Positions 3,520-41,140 are shown, numbered from the stretch's first letter. The stretch: 64,000 nt of DNA from Lachnospiraceae bacterium (GCA_017408025.1 JAFQVJ010000068.1:107440-171439); one strand, 5' to 3'. Program-made: numbers and translations. Notes: generated by a model not told the origin, from the sequence alone.

Positions 3520-4707
3520 CTATTGTTGCTCCTTTATCTTTACCAATACCTCTTTAATCTTATCAAATTCCTCAATGGTAAGACCTGATTTATGTAATGC
3601 ACCAGAGCTAACTCGCTTATTCAATGCATTTTCAATGATAACCTTTTCACTCATGTCCTTTTTATCCATTGTACCTTTAAGGTATTCCACTGCTGATATA
3701 GCTGTATCGCACATCATTACAATGGCAGCCTCTCTGCTTCTTGGCAATCTGGACTTAACATTATGTTCTACCATAATTGCTTTTACACTCTTTGGTATAC
3801 CATATTTTTCTGCTAATGCAAGTCCTTCTTTTATATATTCATTGCCAGCAACTTTACCTAAATCATGATAGATTCCGCCTGCATATGCCAATTCTTCATC
3901 TGCGCCTATTCTTCTAGCTGCCAGTCTTGCAAGCTCCGCAACCTCAGTTGAATGATAATATAGGGATGTTGATTTATTCTTTATAAGTCGAATCGCAACA
4001 AAATTATCATCTGATATTTTCTTGAGATATATTGCAGGTGTCTTCATCTTAAGCACCCAATTTATAAGTATGCCCAGTACGTTAGCAACTACCATAGTCA
4101 ATATTCCTACAACCATCATAGATACTACAAATCCTACTGTTTCGTATTCCATGCCTATTCCATCACAATAATACTTAAATGCAAGTACACTTACAAGCTC
4201 TGTACTTACAAAAAACAATATTCCTGCCATATTTTTATATATTTCTTTGTGTTTCCAAATAGCAAAGCAGGCGGATGCACAAATAACAGGAATCACTATT
4301 CCAAAAATGTACATTGGATACTCATCAAAATTGACAAGCATAACACAGGAAACAGATATACTTGTTATAAAACCTGCTTTCAAATCATATACAGCCGCCA
4401 TAACCATCGGTATTAACATAAATGGCATATATTTAATTGGCAGCAGAACACATATTATGGTTCCAATCAGTACAAAATGGTACATAGACATCATTGCCAA
4501 CAGTTTCTTTTCAGTAACAACAAGATATATCAATGTTGCCATAAATGATATGGCTATAAATGTAGTTATGGCAACTCTCTCGTTATCCCAGATCTCCTCT
4601 TCATATATTTTTGAAATATAATAAGATAAAAAGATTGTCAGTGCTGTCATATATATAACAGCTCCCACCTTTAATCCAATATCCTTAAACGCCTTTTCTT
4701 CTTTCAT
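3520..4707 (-). CDS. 7TM-HD membrane phosphohydrolase (PgpH/YqfF-like, short form)
   Basis: About 7 TM helices followed by an HD domain (GGIYHDLGK). Occupies the yqfF position between phoH and ybeY. Only 395 aa, with no large N-terminal extracellular domain. Confidence 0.78.
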   Translation of the reverse strand: MKEEKAFKDIGLKVGAVIYMTALTIFLSYYISKIYEEEIWDNERVAITTFIAISFMATLIYLVVTEKKLLAMMSMYHFVLIGTIICVLLPIKYMPFMLIPMVMAAVYDLKAGFITSISVSCVMLVNFDEYPMYIFGIVIPVICASACFAIWKHKEIYKNMAGILFFVSTELVSVLAFKYYCDGIGMEYETVGFVVSMMVVGILTMVVANVLGILINWVLKMKTPAIYLKKISDDNFVAIRLIKNKSTSLYYHSTEVAELARLAARRIGADEELAYAGGIYHDLGKVAGNEYIKEGLALAEKYGIPKSVKAIMVEHNVKSRLPRSREAAIVMMCDTAISAVEYLKGTMDKKDMSEKVIIENALNKRVSSGALHKSGLTIEEFDKIKEVLVKIKEQQ

Positions 4708-7606: not shown

Positions 7607-10264
7607 TTATTTTCCAATTTGTTCTGAAAGAATTTCTTTTGCCTTAACAAGTGCCTCATCAATCTTCTCTGGAAGCTTTCCACCTGCCTGAGCCATATTC
7701 GGACGACCACCGCCGCCTCCACCAACGATTGTGGCAATGCCCTTAATGATATTTCCGGCATGAGCGCCATTGGCCATAGCACCATCTGTAGCCATAGCTA
7801 AAAGATTTACCTTACCATCCTGTGCTGATGCAATAACAATTACGCCATCACCAATCTGACCCTTAAGCTGATCACCAAGGTTTCTAAGACCATTCATGTC
7901 TACACCATCAACCTTAACAGCAAGAAGCTTTGTTCCGGCAACATCTTCTACCTGATTCATTACATCACCAAGAGCCTCATTTGCCATCTTGCTCTTAAGC
8001 TTTTCATTTTCTGAATGAAGTGTCTTAATTTCATCCTGCATTGACTCTATCTTCTTAACAAGACCTGCAATGTCTGTCTTAGCAGCCTTAGCGGCTTTCA
8101 TAAGTTCATCTTCCATATCAGCATAGTATTTAACTACGCCTGCTCCTGTAAGAGCCTCAATTCTTCTTACACCTGCCGCAATACCAGACTCTGAAACAAT
8201 CTTGAAGTTAGCAATATTTCCTGTATTCTTTACATGAGTACCACCACAGAGCTCAACAGAGAAATCTCCCATAGCAACTACACGAACCTTCTCACCATAC
8301 TTCTCACCGAAGAGTGCCATAGCTCCTGTCTTCTTAGTCTCATCAAGTGTCATTTCCTTTGTGACAACTTCTATTCCTGAAGCAATCTGATCATTGACAA
8401 TAGCTTCAACCTTTGCAATCTCCTCTGCTGTAAGGGCTGCAAAATGTGAGAAGTCAAAACGAAGTCTGTCTTTATTAACTAAAGAACCCGCCTGCTCTAC
8501 GTGTGAGCCCAGAACCATTCTAAGTGCCTTCTGTAAAAGATGGGTCGCACTGTGATTCTTACATGTATCTGCACGATTTGCGCTGTCCACCTTAAGAGTA
8601 ACAACGTCACCAACCTTTATCATTCCATTGACAATCTTACCTACATGACCAACCTTGCCACCGAGAAGCTTGATTGTATCAACTACCTCAAATGTGCTGT
8701 CGCCTACTGTAATAATACCCTTATCACCTTCCTGACCACCCATTGTAGCGTAGAATGTTGTCTCTTCCACAATGACTGTTCCCATGTCACCATCAGCAAG
8801 TGCCTCTACAACCTCTGTGTCAGTTGTAAGAGCAGTAACCTTTGATGTAGTCTCAAGGGAATCATAGCCTACAAACTTAGTAGTAAGTGAAGTATCCAAC
8901 TCTTCGTATACAGTGGCATCAGCGCCCATATAGTTAGTAGTCTTACGTCTGCTTCTGGCATTCTCTCTCTGCTCTGTCATACATGCATTAAATCCCGCTT
9001 CATCAAGAGTCATACCCTTTTCCTCAAGAATTTCTGCTGTAAGATCAAGAGGGAATCCATAAGTATCGTATAACTTAAATGAATCCTCGCCAGAAAGAAC
9101 TGTTTTTCCTTCTGCCTTCATCTTGTCCATCATCTCGCCAAGAATATTTAAGCCCTGATCAATGGTTTTATTAAATTTATTTTCTTCCTCTGTGAGAACC
9201 TTGAAGATAAACTCCTTCTTCTCATCAAGCTCTGGATATCCATCCTTACTCTCATTAATAACTATCTCTGAAAGTTTAGCAAGGAACTTGCCCTCTATAC
9301 CGAGAAGTCTGCCATGTCTTGCAGCTCTTCTGATAATTCTTCTAAGAACATATCCTCTTCCTTCATTCGATGGCATGACACCATCTGAGATAAGGAATGT
9401 AGATGAACGGATATGATCTGTGATAAGTCTGATAGAAATATCTTTCTTCTCATCTACCTGATATGTTGTACCTGCAAGCTTACAGATTTCATCTCTGATA
9501 GCCTTCATAGTATCAATATCAAATACAGAATCAACATCCTGAACTACTACTGCAAGTCTCTCAAGGCCCATTCCTGTATCAATATTCTTCTGTGCAAGCT
9601 CTGTATAATTGCCCTTACCATCGCCTTCGAACTGTGTAAATACGTTGTTCCATACTTCCATGAATCTGTCACACTCACAGCCCACTTTACAATCAGGCTT
9701 ACCACAACCATATTTGATACCTCTGTCGTAGTATATCTCTGTACATGGACCGCATGGACCTGCGCCGTGCTCCCAGAAGTTATCACACTTACCATTCTCA
9801 TCACGGTAGAATCTTGTAATCTTCTCAGCAGGAACACCAACTTCATCTGTCCAGATGTTAAATGCTTCCTCATCATCATAATAGATTGATGGGTAAAGCC
9901 TGTCCTCTTCAAGACCAATTGTCTTTGTAAGGAACTCCCATGACCATGCTATAGCTTCATGCTTGAAATAGTCTCCAAAAGAGAAATTGCCAAGCATCTC
10001 AAAAAATGTAAGGTGACGTGCTGTCTTACCTACATTTTCAATATCACCAGTTCTAACACACTTCTGGCATGTTGTAACTCTCTTTCTTGGTGGTATCTCC
10101 TGTCCAGTAAAATATGGCTTTAAAGGTGCCATACCTGCGTTGATAAGCAATAAACTCTTGTCGTTATGTGGTACAAGAGAAAAGCTGTTCATCTTCAAAT
10201 GATCCTTGCTCTCAAAAAATTCAAGGTACATCCTTCTAAGTTCGTTTACACCGTATTTATTCAT
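7607..10264 (-). CDS. alaS: Alanine--tRNA ligase
   Basis: Full-length AlaRS (MNKYGVNELRRMYLEFFESKDH...). ATG at 10264 is preceded by GGAGGAAGAC. Confidence 0.97.
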   Translation of the reverse strand: MNKYGVNELRRMYLEFFESKDHLKMNSFSLVPHNDKSLLLINAGMAPLKPYFTGQEIPPRKRVTTCQKCVRTGDIENVGKTARHLTFFEMLGNFSFGDYFKHEAIAWSWEFLTKTIGLEEDRLYPSIYYDDEEAFNIWTDEVGVPAEKITRFYRDENGKCDNFWEHGAGPCGPCTEIYYDRGIKYGCGKPDCKVGCECDRFMEVWNNVFTQFEGDGKGNYTELAQKNIDTGMGLERLAVVVQDVDSVFDIDTMKAIRDEICKLAGTTYQVDEKKDISIRLITDHIRSSTFLISDGVMPSNEGRGYVLRRIIRRAARHGRLLGIEGKFLAKLSEIVINESKDGYPELDEKKEFIFKVLTEEENKFNKTIDQGLNILGEMMDKMKAEGKTVLSGEDSFKLYDTYGFPLDLTAEILEEKGMTLDEAGFNACMTEQRENARSRRKTTNYMGADATVYEELDTSLTTKFVGYDSLETTSKVTALTTDTEVVEALADGDMGTVIVEETTFYATMGGQEGDKGIITVGDSTFEVVDTIKLLGGKVGHVGKIVNGMIKVGDVVTLKVDSANRADTCKNHSATHLLQKALRMVLGSHVEQAGSLVNKDRLRFDFSHFAALTAEEIAKVEAIVNDQIASGIEVVTKEMTLDETKKTGAMALFGEKYGEKVRVVAMGDFSVELCGGTHVKNTGNIANFKIVSESGIAAGVRRIEALTGAGVVKYYADMEDELMKAAKAAKTDIAGLVKKIESMQDEIKTLHSENEKLKSKMANEALGDVMNQVEDVAGTKLLAVKVDGVDMNGLRNLGDQLKGQIGDGVIVIASAQDGKVNLLAMATDGAMANGAHAGNIIKGIATIVGGGGGGRPNMAQAGGKLPEKIDEALVKAKEILSEQIGK

Positions 10265-10546: not shown

Positions 10547-12259
10547 TTAATATTGTCCAGTCTTACTAAACTTATCTGCTCTAAATCTAGCAGCATTAAT
10601 AATATCCTCATCATAGCCCATAACTTTCAATAATTGTATGGCATTTCTGCTAGTGGCACGACCTTTATTCAGCTTATAATTAAATAGCACATCATCATCT
10701 ACAACGTCCTCTTCAAAGTGATAATTAGCGTACCAATCTTCAAGTAAATGGGTTAATTCGATATCGTGAGTTGCCGCAAAAGAAATTACATCACATTTTT
10801 CTCTATTCGCAAAGCTCTTCAATATTTCTGTAGACGCAGAAACTCGTTCAACCGTATTTGTTCCTCTAAGGACTTCATCAACAAAGCAAATGATTTTTTC
10901 TCCATCCTTTGATGCATCGATGATTCTCTTCAGTGCTTTTATCTCAACCATATAATAGCTTTCATTATTTTCAAGATCATCCTTAAGACTCATAGATGAG
11001 TATACCTTTCTTCGCTCCATGACAAAGGCCTGACCTGTACATGTGTATATAGTCTGCGCCAGTATGGCGTTTATACCCACAGTCTTTAAAAATGTGGACT
11101 TACCTGACGCATTGCTACCTGTAAGGAGAACACATCTATCTTCCTCTATGGAATTTGCAACAGGCTTTTCTATAAGTGGGTGATACATTTTTTCTCCCTT
11201 TATGCCTTTACCAGAATCAACAGAGGCAGTTACAAAATCCGGTTTGCTATATGCTCCATACTTATTTTTTAGATATGTTCTATACGATGCAGCTGCACAG
11301 GATGACTCCAACAGCCCCATTATCTCATATAATTTACATATTTCTTCATTGTTATCATGAACCTTTTTTAACATAGAATTAAATTTCATAATATCAACAT
11401 GAAAAAGCATTCTCAAATATTCCATAAGGATTTCCGCAAGAGACCCGCTCATGTTATTGCCGGATACAAGAAATACACCCTTTGTCATTCCTTTAATATT
11501 TTCGTAAATACGCTTTATTTCTTCAACATACTTGCCAGTACCATCACTCTCATACTTAGACAGCTTGTCTGCCGCTGATATCATGCGGATAATATAAGCA
11601 AAGCATACGAAATAATTTTCTATTTCTGATTTTGTCCTATAGTACTGCATAACATTTATAACCACCATAGCTATAGTTGCTACAACACCCACTATAGGTT
11701 CTATAAAAATAGTAACTATAGATGCTAAAAGTGCCAACGCCATGATAATATGCTTGGTATTCTTTCTACCTGACAAATCAGCTAATTTACGGATAAAATC
11801 ATAAATACATACTGATTTTGTTCGTCCTATGTCAACAAAATGTTCCTGAAGTTCCCACGCTTTTTCTGGATTTGCCTCCATAAACGATACAATTTTATCA
11901 AAAGACTTTAGCTCTTCATCAGAATAATCCATTCTTCTCAATCGTTCATACAGGCAGTCTTCTCCGATTGACGACCATGTGTGATTCATTAACTTGAATA
12001 TAGAATCCATTCCCATATCATTCCATGTTATATCATCAACGTACGATTTTATCTTTGATTCATTCTTCAAAGCGTCGTAATATTTTCGTATCTTCTGAAA
12101 CTCCACACCCTTATATTCTCTTTTTGGTAATACACCCCAATCATCCTTTAACATCTTTGTTATACGCATTTTCTTATTACGCTTGTATGTTCTTGATTGA
12201 AACGCAAAAAAAACTGCAACACACAAAAAAATAATAAGATAAACTATTAATTCGTCCAT
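10547..12259 (-). CDS. Membrane-associated MutS-related ATPase (MutS domain V only)
   Basis: N-terminal and central TM helices. C-terminal MutS-type ABC ATPase (LLTGSNASGKSTFLKTVG ... FVDEVLRGTNT ... ATHD). No mismatch-binding or Smr domain was seen. Confidence 0.78.
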   Translation of the reverse strand: MDELIVYLIIFLCVAVFFAFQSRTYKRNKKMRITKMLKDDWGVLPKREYKGVEFQKIRKYYDALKNESKIKSYVDDITWNDMGMDSIFKLMNHTWSSIGEDCLYERLRRMDYSDEELKSFDKIVSFMEANPEKAWELQEHFVDIGRTKSVCIYDFIRKLADLSGRKNTKHIIMALALLASIVTIFIEPIVGVVATIAMVVINVMQYYRTKSEIENYFVCFAYIIRMISAADKLSKYESDGTGKYVEEIKRIYENIKGMTKGVFLVSGNNMSGSLAEILMEYLRMLFHVDIMKFNSMLKKVHDNNEEICKLYEIMGLLESSCAAASYRTYLKNKYGAYSKPDFVTASVDSGKGIKGEKMYHPLIEKPVANSIEEDRCVLLTGSNASGKSTFLKTVGINAILAQTIYTCTGQAFVMERRKVYSSMSLKDDLENNESYYMVEIKALKRIIDASKDGEKIICFVDEVLRGTNTVERVSASTEILKSFANREKCDVISFAATHDIELTHLLEDWYANYHFEEDVVDDDVLFNYKLNKGRATSRNAIQLLKVMGYDEDIINAARFRADKFSKTGQY

Positions 12260-29131: not shown

Positions 29132-29172
29132 CTTCTTCGTTAAAAAGATAGAATATAGAAAGGATGAGTTTT

Positions 29173-30201
29173 ATGAGTTTTGAATTCGTCAGAAAGCTTC
29201 CAACTCCACAGGAAATCAAAGAACAATATCCAGTTCCTGAAAAGTTAGTCGCTTTAAAAGAAAATAGAGATAAGCAGATTGCCGATGTATTTACAGGAAA
29301 ATCAGATAAGTTTCTCCTTATCATAGGACCATGCTCTGCCGATAACGAGGATGCAGTTCTTGATTATGTTTCAAGATTAGCAAAGGTACAGGAAAAGGTT
29401 GCAGATAAACTTATTATCATACCTCGTATCTACACAAATAAGCCTCGTACTACAGGTCAGGGCTACAAAGGTATGCTTCACCAGCCAGATCCTGAGAAAA
29501 AACCTGATATGCTTAATGGTCTTTTAGCTATCAGACATATGCATATCCGTTCAATGGAGGAAACTGGACTTACAGCTGCAGACGAGATGCTCTACCCTGA
29601 GAACTATCGCTACTTCTCAGATATTCTTTCATATGTTGCCGTAGGTGCACGTTCAGTTGAGGATCAACAGCACCGTCTCACTGCTTCAGGCATGGATATT
29701 CCATGTGGTATGAAAAACCCTACAAGCGGAAATCTGTCTGTTATGCTTAACTCAGTTGTGGCAGCGCAGTCAAGTCACACATTCCTGTACAGAGGCTGGG
29801 AGGTAAATACAACTGGAAACCCGCTTACACACACTATTCTTCGTGGTTCGGTTAATAAACATGAACAAGCGATACCAAACTATCACTATGAAGATTTAAA
29901 GCTTCTCTATGAGCTTTATCAGCAAAAGAATCTATTGAACCCAGCAGTTATCGTAGATGCCAACCACTCTAACTCAAATAAGCAGTATATGGAACAGATA
30001 CGTATCACAAAGGATATTCTTCACAGTCGCAACAACTCTGACGAGCTCAAAGGCTTCGTAAAGGGTATCATGATAGAAAGCTATATTGAAGGTGGTGCCC
30101 AAAAGATTGGAGAGCACATTTACGGAAAATCCATCACTGACCCATGCCTTGGCTGGGCTGAATCAGAAAAGCTTATATATAATGTAGCAGATTTAGTTTA
30201 G
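29173..30201 (+). CDS. aroG: 3-deoxy-7-phosphoheptulonate (DAHP) synthase, class I
   Basis: LLIIGPCSADNEDAVLDY ... IIPRIYTNKPRT ... VDANHSNS are typical of AroF/G/H-type enzymes. The ATG at 29173 has better RBS spacing than the one at 29164. Confidence 0.9.
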   Translation: MSFEFVRKLPTPQEIKEQYPVPEKLVALKENRDKQIADVFTGKSDKFLLIIGPCSADNEDAVLDYVSRLAKVQEKVADKLIIIPRIYTNKPRTTGQGYKGMLHQPDPEKKPDMLNGLLAIRHMHIRSMEETGLTAADEMLYPENYRYFSDILSYVAVGARSVEDQQHRLTASGMDIPCGMKNPTSGNLSVMLNSVVAAQSSHTFLYRGWEVNTTGNPLTHTILRGSVNKHEQAIPNYHYEDLKLLYELYQQKNLLNPAVIVDANHSNSNKQYMEQIRITKDILHSRNNSDELKGFVKGIMIESYIEGGAQKIGEHIYGKSITDPCLGWAESEKLIYNVADLV

Positions 30202-30259: not shown

Positions 30260-30384
30260 GGATCGCACTAAGGCGGATAGGAAGATGTCGCTAAAGCGAC
30301 CCGTCGTATGTGGAGAATCTTGCAAGCAAGATTCTTTTTTTGTTTAATAGGAAAGTTCTTCAAACTTCCCTATTAAACAAAAAA
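30260..30384 (+). repeat. Modular intergenic repeat, copy A (module M plus hairpin H)
   Basis: GGATCGCACTAAGGCGGATAGGAAGATGTCGCTAAAGCGAC...GGAGAATCTTGCAAGCAAGATTCTTTTTT, then the hairpin TTTGTTTAATAGGAAAGTT/AACTTCCCTATTAAACAAA. Its reverse complement recurs almost identically at 40983-41082. Confidence 0.75.
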
Positions 30385-30410: not shown

Positions 30411-31238
30411 TTATTTTTCAAATATCTCTTTTTTATTGATAATAAATACACCTACCACTAAGCTGACTATCAACGGTATCAGCATGTATACTATACCCTC
30501 TGTCGGTTTTATATCTCTTCCGCTGGACATGTAATCACGAACTAACATAGTATAACTAGCTAAAAAAACTTTGTTCAATATAAGTACTCCAGCCATATGA
30601 TATATCATAATTAGCAGGAAGCTTACTATCGGTCCCATAATCATAGACAGCATTACCTGTACACTGGATACCATAAGTGAATAAAGTAACGGCATAACAA
30701 ATACATAGAGTATCATATTCGTCTGAGATATTCCACCAATATAGGACTGGTCCATGTTCATAAACAAGTCTGAATGATATTTAAAGCTTATAGAACAGCC
30801 AGTAGCAACACAGTATATAAATATAATCATATACACTATTAGATAACACAATATAACTGTAACAAACATCCACAGGCACTTACTAAACCACCAGTTTTTC
30901 TTCTTTTCAACTCGTATAAATACCTGCTTACCATATCCATATATATCATCAAATGGATAATATCCAACCATAGTTGCAACAATAATCTGCATACCAATGA
31001 ATGTAATGGGAATATCTACCGTACCAATATCTAAATTTATCTCTTTTGCTCCCTTAAAAAAATATATCAAATGATCCATAAATGTTCTGGATTCATCATC
31101 TATATATATTTCTGAAAACGTACTGAAGAGCACACAGCATATGACAGCAAATATAGCAGCTATCACATACTTTTTGTAATTATATACAAATCCACATCTT
31201 AGGTCATATTTAATTATTCTATATAATCTATGCTTCAT
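30411..31238 (-). CDS. ABC-2-type transporter permease-like membrane protein (second permease)
   Basis: About 6 TM helices. Starts at the internal ATG 31238 (MKHRLYRIIKYDL...), 17 nt after the ATPase stop. The layout is typical of LanE/LanG-like permeases. Confidence 0.62.
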   Translation of the reverse strand: MKHRLYRIIKYDLRCGFVYNYKKYVIAAIFAVICCVLFSTFSEIYIDDESRTFMDHLIYFFKGAKEINLDIGTVDIPITFIGMQIIVATMVGYYPFDDIYGYGKQVFIRVEKKKNWWFSKCLWMFVTVILCYLIVYMIIFIYCVATGCSISFKYHSDLFMNMDQSYIGGISQTNMILYVFVMPLLYSLMVSSVQVMLSMIMGPIVSFLLIMIYHMAGVLILNKVFLASYTMLVRDYMSSGRDIKPTEGIVYMLIPLIVSLVVGVFIINKKEIFEK

Positions 31239-31254
31239 ATATAACACCTTTCCC

Positions 31255-31929
31255 TTACGCCTGTTGACTCTGCTCTTCTTTACGTTCATCCACCTTATAC
31301 TGTTTCTTTATTATACCTCCATCTATCTCAATTATCTCATCTGAAAGATAGAACAGCTCTTCTTTATCATGACATGCCAAAATGACAACCTTATCTTCTT
31401 TCTTTAGTTCATCAAGAATCTCTCTTATAATTTTTACACCCTCTTCATCTACAGCATTGACAGGCTCGTCCAGTATAATAATATCTGGTTTCTCCATTAT
31501 AGCACAGGCAATACCAAGCTTCTGTTTCATGCCAAGAGAATACTTTTTGTACTTTTTCTTATCTTCCGGATCAAGGCCTACACGCTCTATAACTGCCTTA
31601 ATCTCCTCATCACTGATAATATTCTTGATAGATGCTATCATTTTCAGATTGTCAAAGCCCGAGTATGATGGTAAAAACGCAGGATTTTCTATAAGCAAAC
31701 CAATACTTTCCGGAAACGACATATCCTTGCCTAAAATTTTACCACCTATAACCACTTCTCCCTCTGTAGCTGTTATCAAGCCTGATATAATGCGCATGAG
31801 CATAGTCTTTCCACTGCCATTTTTTCCCTTCAAACCATATATTTTCCCTGTATTCATGCCTACATTGATACCCGAAAGAACAGTATTACTTCCTATTTTT
31901 TTAGTTACATTTTTAACTTCTATGTACAT
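31255..31929 (-). CDS. ABC transporter ATP-binding protein
   Basis: Walker A GKNGSGKT, signature YSLGMKQK, Walker B IIILDEP. Start ATG at 31929 (MYIEVKNVTKK) follows GAGGAAAAAATA. Confidence 0.9.
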   Translation of the reverse strand: MYIEVKNVTKKIGSNTVLSGINVGMNTGKIYGLKGKNGSGKTMLMRIISGLITATEGEVVIGGKILGKDMSFPESIGLLIENPAFLPSYSGFDNLKMIASIKNIISDEEIKAVIERVGLDPEDKKKYKKYSLGMKQKLGIACAIMEKPDIIILDEPVNAVDEEGVKIIREILDELKKEDKVVILACHDKEELFYLSDEIIEIDGGIIKKQYKVDERKEEQSQQA

Positions 31930-31942
31930 TATTTTTTCCTCG

Positions 31943-32917
31943 CTATTTTTTGCCAAGCTTTTCCAGCTCTGTAAACGGCAGCAGATAAACTTCCGCAGCA
32001 TTAAAATTCTCTATATTTGTGTTGTAGCCTTCATCCATAACAAGATACATATCCTCCATTTCATCCTCAACAAAAATATATATTATCTCACCTATATATT
32101 CTTCCTTTGGTTCTAAAACAATACAGCTTGGATTCACGCCACCTGAATCACGCAAAAACTTATCTGCCATATTGGTGTAAATTGGTTCACCGCCGGTTGT
32201 ATAATCAGACTTATATACCATTGTTTTTCTGTATAACTTTCCATCATCAAGATATGTAAAATCCTCCATATAATGCATATTATAAAGCCATATCTCATTT
32301 TCTGTTGGCAAGAGGTTAGTGTATTTTACTGTTAATTTCACAGCTTTAAGTTTTTGATTTTCTATAATTGTCTCCTCACCATAATCAAGATCACCATATC
32401 TAACCTTTTTTTTCTGCGTAAATGTATTAAATGTACCATCCGTATTTATCAAACCTTTTTGTAATTCTTTACATAAATCATTGGTAAAGCCATGTTCAAA
32501 TGCTCCACTTATTCCATCCATCGTAACATTTAACCCACTAAAATATTTTGTCAAATCATCTATCTCCTCATATCCTAAAAACTCCACCTCAGCATATGAC
32601 ATGATATGTCTGAATTTATATTTATCAGTTATAAATTCCTTATTGATTTCCCTGCTGTCATATCTATCTTTATATTCACCTTTATGATATTCTGCATTAG
32701 CCTCAGCCTCCCTAATGGTTTCACTCATCTCATTCCATTCACTTTGTAATTCCTGCATTTCAGCTTGTTCCGCTTCATTCAATTTTGCCAATTCTTCCGA
32801 AGACAAAGTACTACTCTCTTCACTATCATTCTTTATAATCACCATAGCAACAATCATCACACATACTAACATTACCAATATAATTGTAAAAATTAAATTT
32901 TTCTTTTTATTATACAT
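31943..32917 (-). CDS. Hypothetical N-terminally anchored extracytoplasmic protein
   Basis: 324 aa: TM helix (LIFTIILVMLVCVMIVAMVII), an acidic coiled segment (EELAKLNEAEQAEMQELQSEW), then a ~230-aa globular region. No family recognised. Confidence 0.55.
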   Translation of the reverse strand: MYNKKKNLIFTIILVMLVCVMIVAMVIIKNDSEESSTLSSEELAKLNEAEQAEMQELQSEWNEMSETIREAEANAEYHKGEYKDRYDSREINKEFITDKYKFRHIMSYAEVEFLGYEEIDDLTKYFSGLNVTMDGISGAFEHGFTNDLCKELQKGLINTDGTFNTFTQKKKVRYGDLDYGEETIIENQKLKAVKLTVKYTNLLPTENEIWLYNMHYMEDFTYLDDGKLYRKTMVYKSDYTTGGEPIYTNMADKFLRDSGGVNPSCIVLEPKEEYIGEIIYIFVEDEMEDMYLVMDEGYNTNIENFNAAEVYLLPFTELEKLGKK

Positions 32918-32937
32918 TTTTACCCTCCTACAGCCTG

Positions 32938-33516
32938 CTACAACTCAAAGCAATACACCAATCCATTTTCACTATCATCAATATTTATCTGAATATCATC
33001 TACATCAAGTTCATTAAATGTTTTTTCGGAATAATAACATCCCCAAATACCAAACACAACAAGATATTCTCTTGGTTCACCAATATTTAAGTCATCAATT
33101 ATTATACTTCCATTATTCATATAATACATATAGTCTATCATTACTGGGCTGACATCATATTCATTATATGCGTACATCCTCGATGTATCAATTTGATAAT
33201 TTTCCTCCAATGCTGTAATTTCAAACTTAACTAGAACATATTTCTGCTGACCTAATTCTTCTTCATCTAGATCTAATTGTGTTCTATGTTCTTCAAGACC
33301 ATATACCTTAAGAATTTCATCAAAGTCATATATCTCTGCACTATTAAGTCTGTATCTTACGCCTTGATAATCTAACGCATCCCCATATCCATAATGTACA
33401 TCTTCTGGAATTCTATACTTTGCATATGTGTCATAAATCTTAACTCCCCATATAACAAGCAATATCACCAAAAGTAAAACTCCTATGATTTTCTTGATTT
33501 TTATATTTTTTCTCAT
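32938..33516 (-). CDS. Hypothetical N-terminally anchored extracytoplasmic protein
   Basis: 192 aa: TM helix (IIGVLLLVILLVIWGV) plus a beta-rich-looking domain. The start codon overlaps the upstream stop (TGATG). Confidence 0.55.
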   Translation of the reverse strand: MRKNIKIKKIIGVLLLVILLVIWGVKIYDTYAKYRIPEDVHYGYGDALDYQGVRYRLNSAEIYDFDEILKVYGLEEHRTQLDLDEEELGQQKYVLVKFEITALEENYQIDTSRMYAYNEYDVSPVMIDYMYYMNNGSIIIDDLNIGEPREYLVVFGIWGCYYSEKTFNELDVDDIQINIDDSENGLVYCFEL

Positions 33517-34340
33517 CAGTACACCTCCTTCTTGGAGCTAACAAACCCAAAATATGTACATACGAATAATATAATAATTTCAACAAAAAGAATACTATAG
33601 TTATATTGACTATTTGTTTGCGCATGAAGTGTAGCTGAAAAATCTATTTCACCTACACCTGTTACTCTGCTAAGAAATATCAGCATAAACGATAATACAA
33701 AAGGTGTGATAAACACACTAAAATAATTGTATATATGTTTAGAGACAAGTAACGCTAAAGTAGCAAGCAAGCCTGCAACCACAAATACCAGTAGTATTCT
33801 AAACAAAGTATATATCATAGGGTGTTCATAAAACAAATCTATGCAGAATGTTTCTTCCCCTATAATAGCCATATAATACCTATATGGCTTATGTAAAGGT
33901 AATATAGTTGCCAATGCAAAGAATTGTGCTAGCATAGGTACAACCACTACCATACCACCTGTTATAAAGGTTGCTATATATTTTGCTCTCATATATGTCT
34001 TCATAGACATTCGCGATACCATCTGCTTTACATAACCAATCTTCATCTCTGAATAAAATGAAGTTCCGTATGGAAGTGTAGCCAATATAGGCATAATAAA
34101 GAATATAATAACAATATGTTGATTAGGACTAAATAATATCCATTGGTCATATGGAGTTGCTTCACATACACCTTCAACACCTATATATCCAAACTCTTTG
34201 CCGATATCATCAATAAAAACACAACTATCATACACCTCCATAAAATGCATAATGCAAAATACAGCTACACATAGAAAGGATAAAAGAGTCCACTTGTTAA
34301 AAATTCCTCTTTTCAATTCATTTTTTAGCACTCTGTACAT
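33516..34340 (-). CDS. ABC-2-type transporter permease-like membrane protein (first permease)
   Basis: 274 aa with about 6 TM helices. The N-terminus MYRVLKNELKRGIFNKW is typical of ABC-2/LanE-like permeases. RBS GTGAGGT is present. Confidence 0.6.
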   Translation of the reverse strand: MYRVLKNELKRGIFNKWTLLSFLCVAVFCIMHFMEVYDSCVFIDDIGKEFGYIGVEGVCEATPYDQWILFSPNQHIVIIFFIMPILATLPYGTSFYSEMKIGYVKQMVSRMSMKTYMRAKYIATFITGGMVVVVPMLAQFFALATILPLHKPYRYYMAIIGEETFCIDLFYEHPMIYTLFRILLVFVVAGLLATLALLVSKHIYNYFSVFITPFVLSFMLIFLSRVTGVGEIDFSATLHAQTNSQYNYSILFVEIIILFVCTYFGFVSSKKEVY

Positions 34341-34402
34341 TTATATAACCTCACAAAAATAATACTTTAAAATCTACAACCAACAGACATCTCTATATAT
34401 AC

Positions 34403-34494
34403 ACTATAGTTTCTCATTTGACCATTGCGAAGTTGTATTTTTTCACCTTTTAAAAAAATACAACTTCGCAATGGCGTATTAGCTTTTTTATATT
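34403..34494. promoter_or_regulatory. Divergent promoter pair sharing a perfect 22-bp inverted repeat (candidate operator)
   Basis: Arms are 34422-34443 (CCATTGCGAAGTTGTATTTTTT) and 34453-34474, with a 9-nt spacer. Each arm contains an outward-facing TTCGCA. On the minus strand this gives TTCGCA-N17-TATAGT; on the plus strand TTCGCA-N18-TATATT. Confidence 0.55.
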
Positions 34495-34532
34495 ATATTA
34501 CATTTAAAATTAAACAAAAGGAGATTTCACAA

Positions 34533-34673
34533 ATGAAAACACTTAAAAAATTTATAACACTTATCTCATGCGTATGTATTATTACAACCTCTATTAAGAT
34601 ACCTTTTTATTCAGAGTCGCCTAATTATTCAGTATACTCTGATGATCATAAAGAGTCCAACATAAAAAACTAA
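34533..34673 (+). CDS. Small exported pro-peptide candidate (46 aa)
   Basis: AAAGGAG RBS lies 7 nt upstream of the ATG. Sequence is MKTLKKFITLISCVCIITTSIKIPFYS-ESPNYSVYSDDHKESNIKN: a basic N-terminus, a hydrophobic core, then a hydrophilic tail. Its stop is 2 nt from the stop of the convergent regulator. Confidence 0.5.
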   Translation: MKTLKKFITLISCVCIITTSIKIPFYSESPNYSVYSDDHKESNIKN

Positions 34674-34675
34674 GT

Positions 34676-36472
34676 TTAAAAAGGCAAAATAATATTATGT
34701 TTTGTACACAAATTTCTAATTCTGCTAATTGAAGCTTTATTCTTATATAACTCGGCTATAACATAGGCATATTTAAGGTTTTCTTCACATTTCATTTTTT
34801 CTTCCATGCTGATGTTTTCTTTTTTTTCTAAAATATTCCACGCAATATCATATGATAAACTTCTAATATGCAACAACATATCTATTTTTACCGATGCACA
34901 AATACATATATGCAGTAAACTGTTAGCGTCGTTAACATTTCCCATCTCACCTAATATATCTCCATGCATATTATTAATATTCAAATACATAAATCCATTT
35001 TTGTGTATCATCTTTTCGTTGTATATATCTGCAAGTGCACTTAAATATTTTCTACATTCGTCGTAACTACTGTCGTATTTTTTACATATAATAATCTTAC
35101 GCAATAAGTTCCATTCGTTATAAAAAAGAATTACGCCTTCCTTTTTCAGTTTATTTATGTCTACAATGCTCTCATTCAATATTTCCTTTAACTTATTTAA
35201 ATATATTATAACATTATCTTGAACATTGTCATATTCAAACATAGTTGCACATATAAATTGTCTACTATTTACACTTTCTAGCTTATATTCAGCTTGAATT
35301 TCTTCTAAAATACTTGTAATTTTATAATGTTCCTCCCTATTGCATGAATCTCGTATCTCATTTATCTTTTCAAACGCCTTATAATCATATGTGTCAATTC
35401 TTGCCACATACTTATCTCCAGACAGTTTCACTCTCTGCAACAGCTTTTCCTTTTTTTCCTTTTGAAGACTTCTTCTATTATTCTCCATCTGTGAAACAGT
35501 GCTAATATCACATATACCAAAAGCTAATTCTGCTTGAGTTATCCCTAACATTTTTCTGCGCTGACTTATTATTTCATTGACATTATAAGCATCTATCTCC
35601 TCATACCTAGGAAAAAACTCTTCTACACTTCGAACTCCATACTGCATTTTAAACTCATTAAGCACAGCTATATACTTTTTTTCCACTGACATATCTTCGC
35701 CTTTACGCTCAAGACAAGTGATTATTCCCTCCTTAAGCTCTGTTAAAAACATAATAAAATCACCATTTAAAGTATATTCATATGTCTTTTCAGCTATTTC
35801 CAATGCCGCATCATACATTTCATGTCTCAGATAATATTTCATACTCCAATATCCCACATGTCGATAAAGCAATTCCCTTTCAGACCGGTCATACCTGGTA
35901 TCTTCCAATACATCCAATATATCCTTATATAATTTTATTGCTTGCTCTTCTTCTCCAGACAACTCCATATATCTTACGTATTGCTGTATGAGCAACATTT
36001 CCATACGACTTAAGTAATATTCATTAAGCTTATCTATATCAAATTTAGAACGAGTAATCTTTAAACCGGTCATTATCATATCCATACAAGAACTTATATT
36101 TTCACCTGTTCTATGCATAATTTCACATTCCACCAGACACAAATACTGTTCTTCTAACCTGCTGTGTCCGTTTTTTCTATACTCATCTATCTTACTTTTG
36201 GCCTCGTTATAATTCCCCTCATCTATAGTATCATATATCTCCCATCTCTTTTCCAACCTTTCATACTCATCAACATCTAACAGCATCTCAAAGCGCCCAC
36301 TATACTTTCCCAATCTTTGATATAGACTTTCAAATAGCAGCTTGTCCGCATCTCTTTTGTTGTTCTCAATATGAGTCAAATATCCTACAGAGCATAAGCC
36401 CTCTGACAAGGTTTTCCTACTTATTCCAAGACTTTCTCTTATATTCCATAGTAGTTTTCCTGTGTATAACAT
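34676..36472 (-). CDS. Tandem (duplicated) XRE-HTH / TPR-like transcriptional regulator, RRNPP-like
   Basis: Two HTH segments: LWNIRESLGISRKTLSEGLCSVGYLTHIENNKR near the N-terminus and QRRKMLGITQAELAFGICDISTVSQMENNRR around residue 310. Each is followed by about 230 aa of helical repeats. ATG at 36472 is preceded by AAAGGTGA. Confidence 0.78.
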   Translation of the reverse strand: MLYTGKLLWNIRESLGISRKTLSEGLCSVGYLTHIENNKRDADKLLFESLYQRLGKYSGRFEMLLDVDEYERLEKRWEIYDTIDEGNYNEAKSKIDEYRKNGHSRLEEQYLCLVECEIMHRTGENISSCMDMIMTGLKITRSKFDIDKLNEYYLSRMEMLLIQQYVRYMELSGEEEQAIKLYKDILDVLEDTRYDRSERELLYRHVGYWSMKYYLRHEMYDAALEIAEKTYEYTLNGDFIMFLTELKEGIITCLERKGEDMSVEKKYIAVLNEFKMQYGVRSVEEFFPRYEEIDAYNVNEIISQRRKMLGITQAELAFGICDISTVSQMENNRRSLQKEKKEKLLQRVKLSGDKYVARIDTYDYKAFEKINEIRDSCNREEHYKITSILEEIQAEYKLESVNSRQFICATMFEYDNVQDNVIIYLNKLKEILNESIVDINKLKKEGVILFYNEWNLLRKIIICKKYDSSYDECRKYLSALADIYNEKMIHKNGFMYLNINNMHGDILGEMGNVNDANSLLHICICASVKIDMLLHIRSLSYDIAWNILEKKENISMEEKMKCEENLKYAYVIAELYKNKASISRIRNLCTKHNIILPF

Positions 36473-36519
36473 ATAATCACCTTTTCTTCCAATTTTACAC
36501 ATTTTCAGTATTTTGTATA

Positions 36520-37263
36520 CTATCTATGTATAGCATAAGTTGTCACGCCATCCACCGTTGCCATATTAGCATAATCTTTAAATATCTTCCAAAAGCCCTG
36601 ACGGCTCATTTTTCTGCCAAAACGATTTAAAAATAATTCACCTGTATCCTCGCCCTTTATATAGCTGCCCCTTGCCCTTCCTATATATTTATCTAATGCG
36701 CATAATGTATCCTTGCTAAAGCGTATGGTTTTATCTTTTTTTCTGCCATGACATGTCACATATGCATATTGGAGGTTTACATCCTCGGTCTTTAATTCTA
36801 TGATTTCACTTACTTTTATACCTGTATCTATCATCAGCTTGAGCATAGCCCTGTCTCTAAGTTCTTTATTTCCATCTCCTGATATCTGATTCAGGATTTT
36901 ATTCATATTCTCATCAGATATTGCCTCTGTCTTCTTTCTGTCATTTTGAGGTATCTGGAGATTTTCTGTAGGTTCCCTCTTCACTGCACCGTTGTTAATC
37001 ATACATCTAAAAAACGTTTTAATAGCTGACGCATTTCTCGCAATAGTAGCTGCAGATTTTCCCAATCGTTCCATATATAAAATATATGAATTAATATTTG
37101 TTCCATTTATCTTACTGACATCTTCTATTCCCTGTTCCATAAAATACTTTGCCATAGCATTCAAATCACGCTTATATGACTGCAAAGTATTATCCGAAGC
37201 ATTTTTCACCTTTTTCATATACTCCATAAAAAAATCTATATTGACTACAATATTATTATCCAT
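36520..37263 (-). CDS. XerD-like tyrosine-recombinase homolog, short and active-site degenerate
   Basis: N-terminal SAM-like domain (TLQSYKRDLNAMAKYF), then RDRAMLKLMIDTGIKVSEI with Lys in place of the first catalytic Arg. The protein ends at ...TTYAIHR, before the His/Tyr box. Confidence 0.72.
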   Translation of the reverse strand: MDNNIVVNIDFFMEYMKKVKNASDNTLQSYKRDLNAMAKYFMEQGIEDVSKINGTNINSYILYMERLGKSAATIARNASAIKTFFRCMINNGAVKREPTENLQIPQNDRKKTEAISDENMNKILNQISGDGNKELRDRAMLKLMIDTGIKVSEIIELKTEDVNLQYAYVTCHGRKKDKTIRFSKDTLCALDKYIGRARGSYIKGEDTGELFLNRFGRKMSRQGFWKIFKDYANMATVDGVTTYAIHR

Positions 37264-39520: not shown

Positions 39521-39620
39521 CCGTGCACGTTCAGCTTTAGCTGACATTTTCTTCTCGTGCGAGGTCTCATCATTATTTTATCATATAGGGAAGTTAAAAG
39601 AACTTTCCTATATGATAAAA
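39521..39620 (-). repeat. Modular intergenic repeat, copy B (degenerate module M plus hairpin H)
   Basis: Hairpin TTTTATCATATAGGGAAGTT/AACTTTCCTATATGATAAAA (39576-39620), plus a degenerate ...TCGCAC..GAAAATGTCAGCTAAAGCTGA... segment. Confidence 0.55.
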
Positions 39621-39646
39621 TAGAGTTCCGCAAGCGGAACTCTATC
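39617..39646 (-). terminator. Intrinsic terminator of the aminotransferase gene
   Basis: Minus strand AGAGUUCCGC-UU-GCGGAACUCU followed by AUUUUAU. Confidence 0.6.
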
Positions 39647-40982: not shown

Positions 40983-41140
40983 AAGAACTTTCCTATTAAA
41001 TAAAAAAGAATCTTGCTTGCAAGATTCTCCGCCTACGGCGGGGCGCTTTAGCGACATCTTCCTATCCGCCGTAGTGCGATCCTTTGCGGAGCATTTTTGT
41101 TGTATAGGAAAGTTTCGAGAACTTTCCTATACAACAAAAA
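40983..41140 (-). repeat. Modular intergenic repeat, copy C (half H, module M, full hairpin H)
   Basis: 41008-41082 is the reverse complement of 30260-30335 with only a handful of mismatches. The perfect 21-bp hairpin TTTTTGTTGTATAGGAAAGTT-TCGAG-AACTTTCCTATACAACAAAAA lies at 41094-41140. Confidence 0.75.

Follow-up and report, generated by a model that had tools for sequence, protein, structure and literature searches.

Organization of the locus

The 64,000-nucleotide stretch of Lachnospiraceae bacterium DNA analysed here (GCA_017408025.1 JAFQVJ010000068.1:107440-171439; hereafter the window) contains a block of seven open reading frames between a DAHP synthase gene (29164–30201) on one side and a XerD-like ORF (36520–37263) and spoIIM on the other. 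A large regulator gene on the minus strand (34676–36502) is met tail to tail by a small gene on the plus strand (34533–34673), and the stop codon of the latter (34671–34673) is 2 nt from that of the regulator (34676–34678). Five further genes, all on the minus strand, form an operon which encodes a 274-residue membrane protein (33516–34340), a 192-residue protein (32938–33516), a 324-residue protein (31943–32917), an ABC ATPase (31255–31929) and a 275-residue membrane protein (30411–31238). The operon is followed, next to aroG, by a terminator region (30312–30384) consisting of a G+C-rich hairpin and then a 49-bp palindromic element.

Between the operon and the small gene lies a perfect inverted repeat with arms of 22 nt (34422–34443 and 34453–34474; 100% complementary) separated by a 9-nt gap. 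It is the longest of only three perfect close inverted repeats with arms of 16 nt or more found in the window. Each arm contains a TTCGCA −35-like hexamer, followed at 17–18 nt by TATAGT or TATATT.

The observation made in the sequence-only reading is real, as all seven ORFs and the inverted repeat are present as it described them. Two details require correction. That reading described the operon as divergent; it is divergent from the peptide gene, but co-directional with and downstream of the regulator. The block was also thought, by eye, to be more AT-rich than its neighbours, which is only modestly true: the G+C fraction is 0.28–0.35 in the block against 0.32–0.40 in the neighbours, with the minimum (0.28) at 34000–35500.

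The two-module regulator

The regulator is 608 residues long from the first ATG, but the true start is probably Met11 at position 36472, giving 598 residues, since homologues begin MLYSGK and NCBI calls a 598-residue protein. Pfam finds HTH_3 (E = 1.7e-10) in two stretches, at residues ~15–65 and 312–350, together with only a weak TPR_14 match (E = 0.036), although TPR and RNPP_C hits occur in relatives. The AF2 model is of high confidence (pLDDT 91.2, pTM 0.91) and shows all-helical repeats following each HTH. In a Foldseek comparison with the PDB the top match was PlcR in complex with PapR7 and DNA (3u3w_A; TM 0.65 on the target), followed by ComR. Alignment of the N-terminal and C-terminal modules with hhalign (probability 98.5%, E = 4e-15, 246 columns) indicates that the protein is an internal tandem duplication of a whole HTH + TPR module.

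The N-terminal module (35639–36463, minus strand) comprises HTH1 (residues 14–63) and helical repeats (residues 77–288), and family conservation over this region is 0.43–0.76 per 20-residue block. The second DNA-binding domain, HTH2 (35432–35581, minus strand; residues 308–357), is 32% identical to HTH1 plus its linker (E = 2e-9). The C-terminal TPR-like module (34700–35380, minus strand; residues 375–601), which we infer to be the peptide-binding and specificity domain, is the least conserved part of the family (0.18–0.38), but a few residues within it are invariant: Asn462, Glu463, Tyr551, Trp555 and Asn556. A profile of this module hits Rgg (E = 6e-5) and, over nearly its full length, PlcR (E = 8e-4).

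We found 34 homologue clusters of 567–630 residues. At 50% identity, 477 clusters score E ≤ 1e-30, and nearly all of the best 150 are about 600 residues long and align over their full length. The family is rare and unannotated rather than a universal core.

The peptide gene and the proposed specificity segment

The small gene encodes a 46-residue product (MKTLKKFITLISCVCIITTSIKIPFYSESPNYSVYSDDHKESNIKN), and GGAG lies 9 nt before its ATG. The product has a basic N-terminus, a hydrophobic stretch, an SVYSDD motif and a variable tail, HKESNIKN. Secretion is inferred from this composition; no prediction of a signal-peptidase site was obtained, and the peptide could stay membrane-anchored. Gene callers call the ORF on 16 contigs. 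It is conserved tail to tail in ten further loci whose regulators share 36–80% identity with that of the window, retaining a signal-like N-terminus and a [ST][VIT]Y[SD][DN][DEN] motif followed by a variable tail. Among the loci with homologous regulators (given here as L numbers), convergent ORFs of 45–51 residues occur in L062, L019, L025, L063, L021, L060, L057, L058 and L059, while L023 (22 residues) and L061 (non-ATG start, ATA) carry variant forms. There are exceptions: the small ORFs of L021 and L060 lack the YSDD-type motif, in L024 and L043 the small ORF is frameshifted, and the human-gut L030 group lacks it. The length, ribosome-binding site, position and motif of the ORF are kept across regulators only 36–80% identical.

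Comparison of the window with L062, a conspecific version of the locus, shows DNA identity of 96–100% (mostly 98–100%) over ~6.7 kb. The exception is a contiguous segment of ~800 bp (34580–35380), which is 55–64% identical, with 78–88% in the two 100-nt edge bins. This segment covers exactly the 3′ part of the peptide gene, encoding the tail, and the 3′ third of the receptor gene, encoding the C-terminal TPR module. Residues 1–360 of the two receptors are 95–100% identical per 40-residue block (about 99% overall), whereas residues ~400–600 are only 45–53% identical. The N-terminal part is likewise nearly invariant among L019, L025 and L063 (residues 1–360 again 95–100% identical per 40-residue block), and the same sharply bounded dip in DNA identity appears when L019 is compared with L063 and L025. 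In total the pattern appears in eight allele pairs from three lineages, including at least four alleles in one species, and the C-terminal part is less conserved than the N-terminal part in 350 of 351 pairs. This is the signature of a cognate, pherotype-diversifying receptor–ligand pair.

The proposed regulator box

Each arm of the inverted repeat contains an oriented 14-bp box with consensus CCATnGCrAAnnTG. The peptide-proximal box (CCATTGCGAAGTTG on the minus strand, 34461–34474) overlaps the −35 position of the peptide-gene promoter, the −10 hexamer of which, TATATT, is at 34489–34494. The operon-proximal box (CCATTGCGAAGTTG on the plus strand, 34422–34435) overlaps the −35 position of the operon promoter, with its −10 hexamer, TATAGT, at 34403–34408 on the minus strand. 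In most loci where a box is recognisable it lies at a fixed distance from the small-ORF ATG, ending 58–63 nt upstream of it, and is followed 14–20 nt later by a TATAAT-like hexamer; L057 has no recognisable box. Binding to the box was not assayed, and so the conserved position alone leaves autoregulation of the peptide gene an unsettled matter. A second, inverted box is present only in loci with a divergent target operon (the window, L062, L019/L025/L063, L021, L024/L060/L043 and L061), and the pair is found in every such locus, whereas L058, L059 and L023, in which only the peptide gene follows, have a single box. The spacing between the paired boxes varies (overall span 41–42 bp against 53 bp), and a third copy lies 66 nt upstream of a DUF2712 gene in L061.

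The ABC-2 operon

The first membrane protein of the operon (permease A, 33516–34340) has no Pfam or NCBIfam hit, but its AF2 model (pLDDT 85) has the predicted six-helix fold of ABC-2 (type V) exporter permeases of the NosY/PmtD/Wzm/ABCG type. Foldseek matches NosY (TM 0.51–0.63) and PmtCD (TM 0.48–0.57), both with probability 0.99–1.00, followed by ABCG proteins, although the E values are modest (6e-3 and above). There are 24 homologue clusters, one of which carries Pfam DUF2705. The last membrane protein (permease B, 30411–31238) is DUF2705-like: a precomputed PF10920 hit is listed for it, our own scan gave only E = 0.075 but over the full length of the model, and it is 53% identical to the orthologue in L064, which carries PF10920. 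The ATPase (224 residues from the ATG preceded by a ribosome-binding site, as gene callers also call it) matches Pfam ABC_tran (E = 1e-28).

The 192- and 324-residue proteins are N-terminally anchored and extracytoplasmic, and each represents an orphan family with no family or PDB hit in the libraries searched. Orthologues of the former sit in the same operon position in L061 (33% identical) and L064 (28%), and orthologues of the latter occur in L061 (two copies) and L064 at 29–35% identity.

The sequence-only reading compared the operon with LanFEG peptide-immunity exporters. This holds only for the layout, one ATPase gene with two different ABC-2 permease genes, and for the ABC-2 fold. The best NCBIfam hit of the ATPase is the lantibiotic-protection ATPase TIGR03740, but the score of 167.7 bits is below the cutoff of 309.75 bits, and PmtC is next. 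Neither permease has a Pfam or NCBIfam hit to a lantibiotic permease model, including LanE and LanG, and none of the seven ORFs of the block hits a lanthipeptide family.

The operon lies behind a similar repeat in a second lineage, L061, the regulator of which is 43% identical to that of the window. This and the shared bidirectional box pair support a link between regulator and operon, but the linkage is not obligatory, since the operon also occurs without an intact regulator in L064. The targets differ by locus: L021 and L060 carry a precursor, a radical SAM/SPASM enzyme and ABC exporters, and L019 carries a single ABC exporter.

Comparison with known systems

Of the systems compared, PlcR/PapR of the Bacillus cereus group is the best structural match. 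It shares an N-terminal XRE-type HTH, a TPR peptide-binding domain and an adjacent propeptide gene, and PlcR–PapR pherotypes exist. The PlcR/PapR system has a Sec-type propeptide of ~46–48 residues which yields its signal from the C-terminal end, a box near −35 and autoinduction; the present locus has a conserved box over the −35 position, whereas Sec export, a C-terminal signal and autoinduction are inferred here. The present receptor, however, is two such modules fused (598–608 residues against 285 for PlcR), only the second of which varies with the peptide. The box is an oriented nonpalindromic 14-mer rather than the palindromic PlcR box, the genes are convergent and meet at their 3′ ends, and the host is an anaerobic gut Lachnospiraceae. 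RRNPP receptors have one module and about 250–500 residues (285–473 in validated members; PMC10075063), and the present protein falls outside the length filter of RRNPP_detector.

In the Rgg/SHP systems that control RaS-RiPP clusters (streptide, tryglysin; PMC8092268, PMC9389541), a cytoplasmic HTH-TPR receptor and a short peptide control an adjacent precursor, radical SAM and ABC exporter cluster, which is exactly the layout of L021 and L060. SHPs are short, lack a Sec signal and are exported by PptAB, the receptor has a single module, and the target in the window is an ABC-2 operon without a radical SAM enzyme. In TprA/PhrA of Streptococcus pneumoniae (PMC6753895, PMC5436883) a PlcR-type regulator and a Sec-exported Phr-like peptide control a neighbouring lantibiotic locus and divergent alleles exist, but TprA is a single-module repressor relieved by the peptide, the gene layout differs and no sequence relationship beyond the superfamily was detected. 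As regards the operon, the layout of one ATPase plus two different ~270-residue six-helix permeases is shared with LanFEG, PmtCD and NosDFY transporters, and the extracytoplasmic partner proteins recall LanI/LanH or NosD.

The sequence-only reading knew of no described system combining these parts. Peptide–receptor pairs controlling peptide-antibiotic and ABC gene clusters are nevertheless a known theme, as shown by TprA/PhrA with a lantibiotic locus, Rgg/SHP with RaS-RiPPs and 196 candidate quorum-sensing-regulated BGCs (PMC10075063). The novelty therefore lies in the two-module receptor and the specificity segment and not in the combination.

Interpretation

The interpretation offered from sequence alone, a peptide-sensing cassette of RRNPP type linked to a transporter operon, is supported. 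It had been put at risk in advance on four points. The regulator might have failed to resemble TPR/RRNPP sensors, but it is predicted to fold like them; the small ORF might have lacked conservation beside homologous regulators, but it is conserved there in many loci and co-diversifies with the receptor; and the block might have been a universal core of annotated genes, which it is not. On the remaining point, dependence of operon expression on the regulator, no data were obtained. In our view the most likely explanation, which we hold with reasonable though not complete confidence, is a PlcR/Rgg/ComR-like peptide quorum-sensing module with an unusual receptor.

What the analysis itself demonstrates is the tandem duplication of the HTH + TPR module in one ~600-residue chain, the tail-to-tail gene with a signal-peptide-like N-terminus, the joint variation of the peptide tail and the C-terminal TPR module between otherwise identical strains, and the oriented boxes over the −35 positions of the peptide-gene and operon promoters. 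The mechanism is our inference from comparative and predicted evidence, there being no expression, secretion, import or binding data. In this view the propeptide would be exported by Sec and cleaved, possibly after the SVYSDD motif, and a C-terminal fragment would be re-imported and bind the concave face of the C-terminal TPR module. Support for re-import (Opp) and direct binding is only indirect, from the co-diversification described above. The conserved N-terminal module would provide the second, non-identical HTH and may also provide contacts for oligomerization or for RNA polymerase. One receptor chain would therefore act as a covalent pseudo-dimer on one asymmetric box, although the HTH–HTH geometry of the model was not inspected.

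Three other readings were considered, and we regard each as unlikely. The small ORF could encode a secreted or membrane-active bacteriocin-like peptide that is cargo of the ABC-2 operon, as its exporter or immunity system, rather than a signal, with the regulator responding to some other cue. The lantibiotic-protection and PSM-export families as the nearest curated families of the ATPase, the resemblance of permease A to PmtD and the position of sister regulators beside RiPP clusters and ABC exporters are consistent with this. However, the peptide tail co-diversifies with the TPR module of the cytoplasmic receptor and not with the transporter, which stays 96–100% identical, regulator–peptide pairs exist with no transporter nearby (L058, L059 and L023), and the RiPP loci have separate precursor genes in addition to the convergent ORF. 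About as improbable is a peptide-independent XRE-type repressor or activator, with the small ORF encoding a small membrane protein or anti-regulator, or being nonfunctional, and the variable segment reflecting a recombination hotspot or relaxed constraint. The weak Pfam TPR hits and the degraded or absent small ORFs noted above could be taken in its favour, but the ORF is kept beside regulators only 36–80% identical, the variable segment stays open in both genes and retains invariant residues such as Asn462, Glu463, Trp555 and Asn556, and the fold matches peptide-bound PlcR and ComR.

The least likely alternative is that the 22-bp repeat acts as an RNA hairpin, a terminator or attenuator of read-through from the regulator gene, rather than as a protein-binding operator. 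It is a perfect stem with a 9-nt loop, it lies downstream of the regulator on the same strand, and L058 has a true terminator hairpin at the equivalent place. No U-tract follows the stem on the regulator's strand, however, and sequence rather than just pairing is conserved, while loop and stem lengths differ and single unpaired boxes occur at the same distance from the peptide gene.

Peptide binding is inferred to change promoter occupancy or activity. The direction of control was not determined, but activation is more likely because the box replaces a good −35 element, as at PlcR, ComR and Rgg sites. The operon is inferred to encode a heterodimeric ABC-2 exporter (permease A, permease B and the ATPase) with two membrane-anchored extracytoplasmic partners. 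Its substrate and function were not identified, and the window has no DUF2712 or RiPP gene, but its most likely role is export of, or protection against, a secreted peptide or protein, as sister operons carry a secreted DUF2712 protein gene with its own box and sister regulators are inferred to control RiPP clusters and ABC exporters. In this gut bacterium, the receptor and its peptide vary together between strains as a swappable 'dialect' segment and appear to switch on the neighbouring ABC transporter operon; activation would give autoinduction of the peptide gene and density-dependent expression of the operon.

Organization of the locus

The observation made in the sequence-only reading holds, in that the block 30411-36502 contains the seven ORFs that it listed. 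The minus strand carries a 608-aa regulator (34676-36502; probably 598 aa from M11 at 36472) and, downstream of it, five tightly packed genes encoding a 274-aa membrane protein (permease A), a 192-aa and a 324-aa protein each with one N-terminal hydrophobic helix, a 224-aa ABC ATPase and a 275-aa membrane protein (permease B). On the plus strand a 46-aa ORF (34533-34673) with a GGAG ribosome-binding site converges on the regulator, the two stop codons lying 2 nt apart. Between the small ORF and the operon lies a perfect 22-bp inverted repeat (34422-34443 / 34453-34474), which is the longest of only three perfect close inverted repeats (arms of 16 nt or more) in the window. Each arm holds a TTCGCA hexamer followed at 17-18 nt by TATAGT or TATATT. 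Identical loci occur on metagenome contigs, and one copy is in an NCBI genome named 'MAG: Lachnospiraceae bacterium'; samples that carry the locus include SAMN15829903, SAMN15829933 and SRR25030029.

The block had been described as looking more AT-rich than its neighbours, but it is only slightly so, and because the GC difference is small we reject the view that it is a foreign AT-rich island. A scan for viral contigs and a tblastn search of plasmids found nothing. A tblastn search of a phage collection found only one hit (MT837868.1, 2385-4142), in which an unannotated 6-kb 'Bacteriophage sp.' contig from human faeces encodes a full-length but only 21%-identical relative of the two-module regulator. 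There is therefore no evidence of a mobile-element origin. We do note that the XerD-like ORF beside the block (36520-37263, minus strand) is only 247 aa, matches positions 3-230 of the 290-position XerD model and ends at the HxxR box, so that it lacks the catalytic-tyrosine region. It stops 17-47 nt before the start of the regulator and has the same length in all conspecific contigs and in L062, a second, conspecific version of the locus; it may be an inactive recombinase, or it may have been truncated when the cassette arrived. A PADLOC search for defence systems gave only generic HTH and ATPase hits.

Three copies of a ~49-bp palindromic element (TTTTTGTT.ATAGGAAAGTT-N5-AACTTYCCTAT.AACAAAAA) were found at 30336-30384, 39574-39622 and 41094-41140, where none is expected by chance. 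One of them sits at the edge of the block, between the aroG terminator and the permease B stop. The only Rfam matches were spurious miRNA hits to this palindrome, which may be a REP-like or a shared bidirectional-terminator element.

The regulator is predicted to be a duplicated PlcR/Rgg-like module

Pfam finds two HTH_3 domains in the regulator, at aa ~15-65 and 312-350. The two halves align by BLAST over the HTH and linker (32% identity, E 2e-9), and as profiles they align over 246 columns (hhalign probability 98.5%, E 4e-15), which indicates that a whole HTH + repeat module was duplicated. Failure of the regulator to fold like, or to match, TPR/RRNPP-type sensors had been named in advance as grounds for abandoning the peptide-sensing interpretation, but the predicted structure behaves as that interpretation requires. 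The AlphaFold model, built from 27 homologues, is confident (pLDDT 91.2, pTM 0.91) and shows an HTH followed by 11-13 helices, twice. A Foldseek comparison with the PDB places PlcR bound to PapR7 and DNA first (TM 0.65 on the target), with ComR structures also among the matches with E<=0.0015. A single-sequence search of the PDB found only generic HTH proteins and profiles of each half were needed; that of the C-terminal half hits Rgg structures (E 6e-5) and PlcR over nearly its whole length (E 8e-4).

The close family is small, consisting of 34 clusters, all of 567-630 aa, and a genome scan returned only three loci. In contrast, a profile search of 1.8 billion representatives finds 477 clusters at E<=1e-30, and nearly all of the best 150 of these are about 600-650 aa and align from end to end. 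The genomic context of this wider family was not examined. Sampled members again show two HTHs, TPRs in both halves and sometimes Pfam RNPP_C, and none carries a name.

Conservation of the convergent small ORF

Whether the 46-aa ORF is kept next to homologous regulators had likewise been put forward beforehand as a test. A convergent ORF at the 3' end of the regulator recurs in every reasonably complete homologous locus that we could read, although the regulators are only 36-80% identical to that of the window. The ORF is 45-51 aa in nine of these loci, usually overlaps the regulator's stop or lies within a few nucleotides of it, and has an RBS. The products share a basic N-terminus (MK..KK), a ~16-residue hydrophobic stretch and, in most loci, a [ST][VIT]Y[SD][DN][DEN] motif followed by 8-10 variable residues. 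The C-terminal sequence is SVYSDD-HKESNIKN in the window and SIYSND-SEYPNKKV in L062; among the loci with more distant regulators it is SVYSDE-TTYPVPKN in L019, STYDDN-PMFPTIKQ in L057, QVYDDR-DNNKPLVNQ in L058 and TVYDNN-IKQPDVKG in L061. The signal-peptide cleavage site and the mature peptide have not been identified, but candidate C-terminal fragments of the window peptide include HKESNIKN, DDHKESNIKN and SVYSDDHKESNIKN, with SNDSEYPNKKV as the L062-type tail.

There are exceptions to this pattern. The sister loci L021 and L060 have divergent tails, L023 has a 22-aa version without the hydrophobic part, and L061 has ATA at the conserved start position. In L024 and L043 (~8846-8932), which are the human-gut UMGS1691 genome and one metagenome contig, the small ORF is frameshifted in an A8 run, whereas it is intact (A7) in L060 (8125-8280); this could be an assembly error, decay or phase variation.

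Joint variation of receptor and peptide

The strongest evidence comes from comparison of the window with L062. The two share the whole spoIIM-to-ATPase region at 96-100% DNA identity (mostly 98-100%), with the exception of one sharply bounded segment, window ~34580-35380, at 55-64%. This segment is exactly the 3' part of the peptide gene plus the 3' third of the regulator gene. At the protein level, receptor residues 1-360 are 95-100% identical per 40-aa block, whereas residues ~400-600 are 45-53% identical. The first 17 residues of the peptide are identical and the rest differ, while the promoter and box region is nearly identical. The same pattern appears in a second lineage (L019/L025/L063), with tails ETTYPVPKN, ENSYPITKD and DKEHIITKD, and altogether in eight allele pairs from three lineages. 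At least four alleles share a 99%-identical N-part, and family-wide the C-part is less conserved than the N-part in 350 of 351 pairs.

Pherotype systems such as PlcR-PapR, Rap-Phr, ComQXP and agr show this pattern. It argues that the secreted part of the peptide and the C-terminal TPR module contact each other, although there are no expression or binding data. The convergent layout makes the two specificity determinants one contiguous DNA segment.

The inverted repeat as two oriented boxes

The motif CCATnGCrAAnnTG occurs as an inverted pair just beyond the small ORF in the window-type loci, L019/L020/L025/L063, L021/L022 and L024/L042/L043/L060. A variant (ACATGACATAGTTG) forms a ~35-bp perfect repeat in L061, where a third box lies 66 nt upstream of a further gene, that for a DUF2712 protein. 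In most loci (window, L062, L019/L025/L063, L021, L058 and L059) the box nearest the peptide gene ends 58-63 nt before its ATG and is followed 14-20 nt later by a TATAAT-like hexamer, so that it covers the -35 position. Loci where only housekeeping genes follow (L058, L059, in which it is degenerate, and L023) have a single box, in the peptide-gene orientation. In L019 two terminator-like hairpins with T-runs (~11090-11215) lie between the distal box and the ABC exporter gene; they may mark a leader or attenuator, or a short transcript.

Two other readings of the repeat were considered. It is unlikely to be a terminator, as no U-tract follows it on the strand of the regulator and sequence rather than pairing is what is conserved. 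A classical palindromic operator for a symmetric dimer is rejected, since single boxes occur and the spacing between boxes varies by 11 bp. The overall span of the pair is 41-42 bp in other loci but 53 bp in the window, so that the spacing is not constrained. The box is not itself palindromic. In our view one two-HTH chain reads one asymmetric box, with one box per promoter; this is an inference that was not put to a test, and the sign of regulation was not established.

Proposed target genes

In the window and L062 the proposed target is the ABC-2 operon. In L061, where the regulator is 43% identical, the same operon follows (permease A 58% identical, the 192-aa protein 33%), preceded by two paralogues of the 324-aa protein and by a secreted 150-aa DUF2712 protein (L061 5396-5848). 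The L061 DUF2712 gene has its own regulator box 66 nt upstream, and a truncated paralogue lies at L061 ~4030-4215. The operon is also present in L064, again with DUF2712 (L064 7546-8001), but of the regulator only a 53-aa HTH remnant with the family's GLCS motif is left; a ToxN/AbiQ-like ORF (judged by eye) lies upstream of this regulator-less copy, and both ORF and remnant are in L064 6565-7441. The link between regulator and operon is therefore recurrent but not obligatory. The window has no DUF2712 homologue.

Other regulators of the family precede either a precursor + radical SAM/SPASM + ABC exporter cluster (L021, L024/L060) or a single ABC exporter (L019). The candidate radical-SAM RiPP clusters are at L021 11101-13073, where the precursor is MNIKELAEIELTQLNESEVIDANAMENVVGFCGLAGKSCGTSSGESSERD with a 583-aa rSAM-SPASM enzyme, and L060 8473-10310, where it is MYERPEFVFFDEEEIAKIRNCFCAFMAHCGPPFSQCRNR with a 450-aa rSAM enzyme and a 100-aa protein; each has ABC exporters. 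The human-gut group L027-L040, with mostly 571-aa regulators, is a degraded L021-type locus.

The ABC-2 operon

The best curated match of the ATPase is the lantibiotic-protection ATPase family, followed by PmtC, both below cutoff. Neither permease hits a curated permease family. The model of permease A (pLDDT 85) matches NosY and PmtD and then ABCG transmembrane domains, while permease B is DUF2705-like. The two anchored proteins are orphans without Pfam, NCBIfam or PDB relatives, and a homologue search with the 324-aa protein, for which no structure was modelled, gave two hits. No paper mentioning DUF2705 or DUF2712 was found. The description 'LanFEG-like' in the sequence-only reading is thus true of layout and fold class only. 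We infer, with low confidence and without having identified a substrate, that the operon has an exporter or protection role for a secreted peptide or protein.

Comparison with known systems and implications

The interpretation of the regulator and small ORF as an RRNPP-type pair is supported. The system is inferred to work like PlcR/PapR, and like Rgg/SHP or TprA/PhrA in controlling neighbouring peptide-related clusters. The duplicated receptor, its conserved convergent ORF, their joint variation and the oriented boxes are what the comparisons show directly, whereas the reading of one box by one chain and the role of the operon are what we infer from them. The system has the fold, the HTH and the adjacent propeptide gene of RRNPP systems, but it falls outside the single-module, 250-500-aa criterion used to define and detect them (PMC10075063). 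No paper was found that describes two-module receptors, or RRNPP systems in Lachnospiraceae with these features, and it is the two-module receptor and the contiguous specificity segment that set the system apart from the established ones.

Peptide quorum sensing of the RRNPP type is well studied in Bacilli and streptococci but is barely known in the dominant gut Clostridia. Current detection tools would miss the present family, since the default filter of RRNPP_detector keeps only 250-500-aa receptors. The family offers a natural experiment in receptor asymmetry, in which one chain carries two modules and only one of them carries specificity, and a clear pherotype signature in uncultured gut bacteria, with the inferred receptor pocket and the peptide swapped as one segment. 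The box sequences and candidate peptide tails defined here can be used in experiments and, as relatives sit next to radical-SAM peptide clusters and ABC operons, the predicted peptides could be used to induce these silent gene clusters.

A broader reading is compatible with these data, but we hold it only tentatively, as somewhat less likely than not. In this view a large, unnamed family of ~600-aa 'covalent pseudo-dimer' RRNPP receptors, comprising hundreds of clusters at 50% identity, exists in gut Clostridia, in which one module is a conserved scaffold with its own HTH and only the second module is the ligand-specificity pocket. Because the two HTHs differ, one chain would read one asymmetric, oriented box, which would allow independent control of each of two divergent promoters. 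The tail-to-tail gene layout would pack the receptor pocket and the mature peptide into a single ~800-bp segment that one recombination event could exchange, generating private pherotypes that would gate RiPP production and ABC exporters in the gut community.
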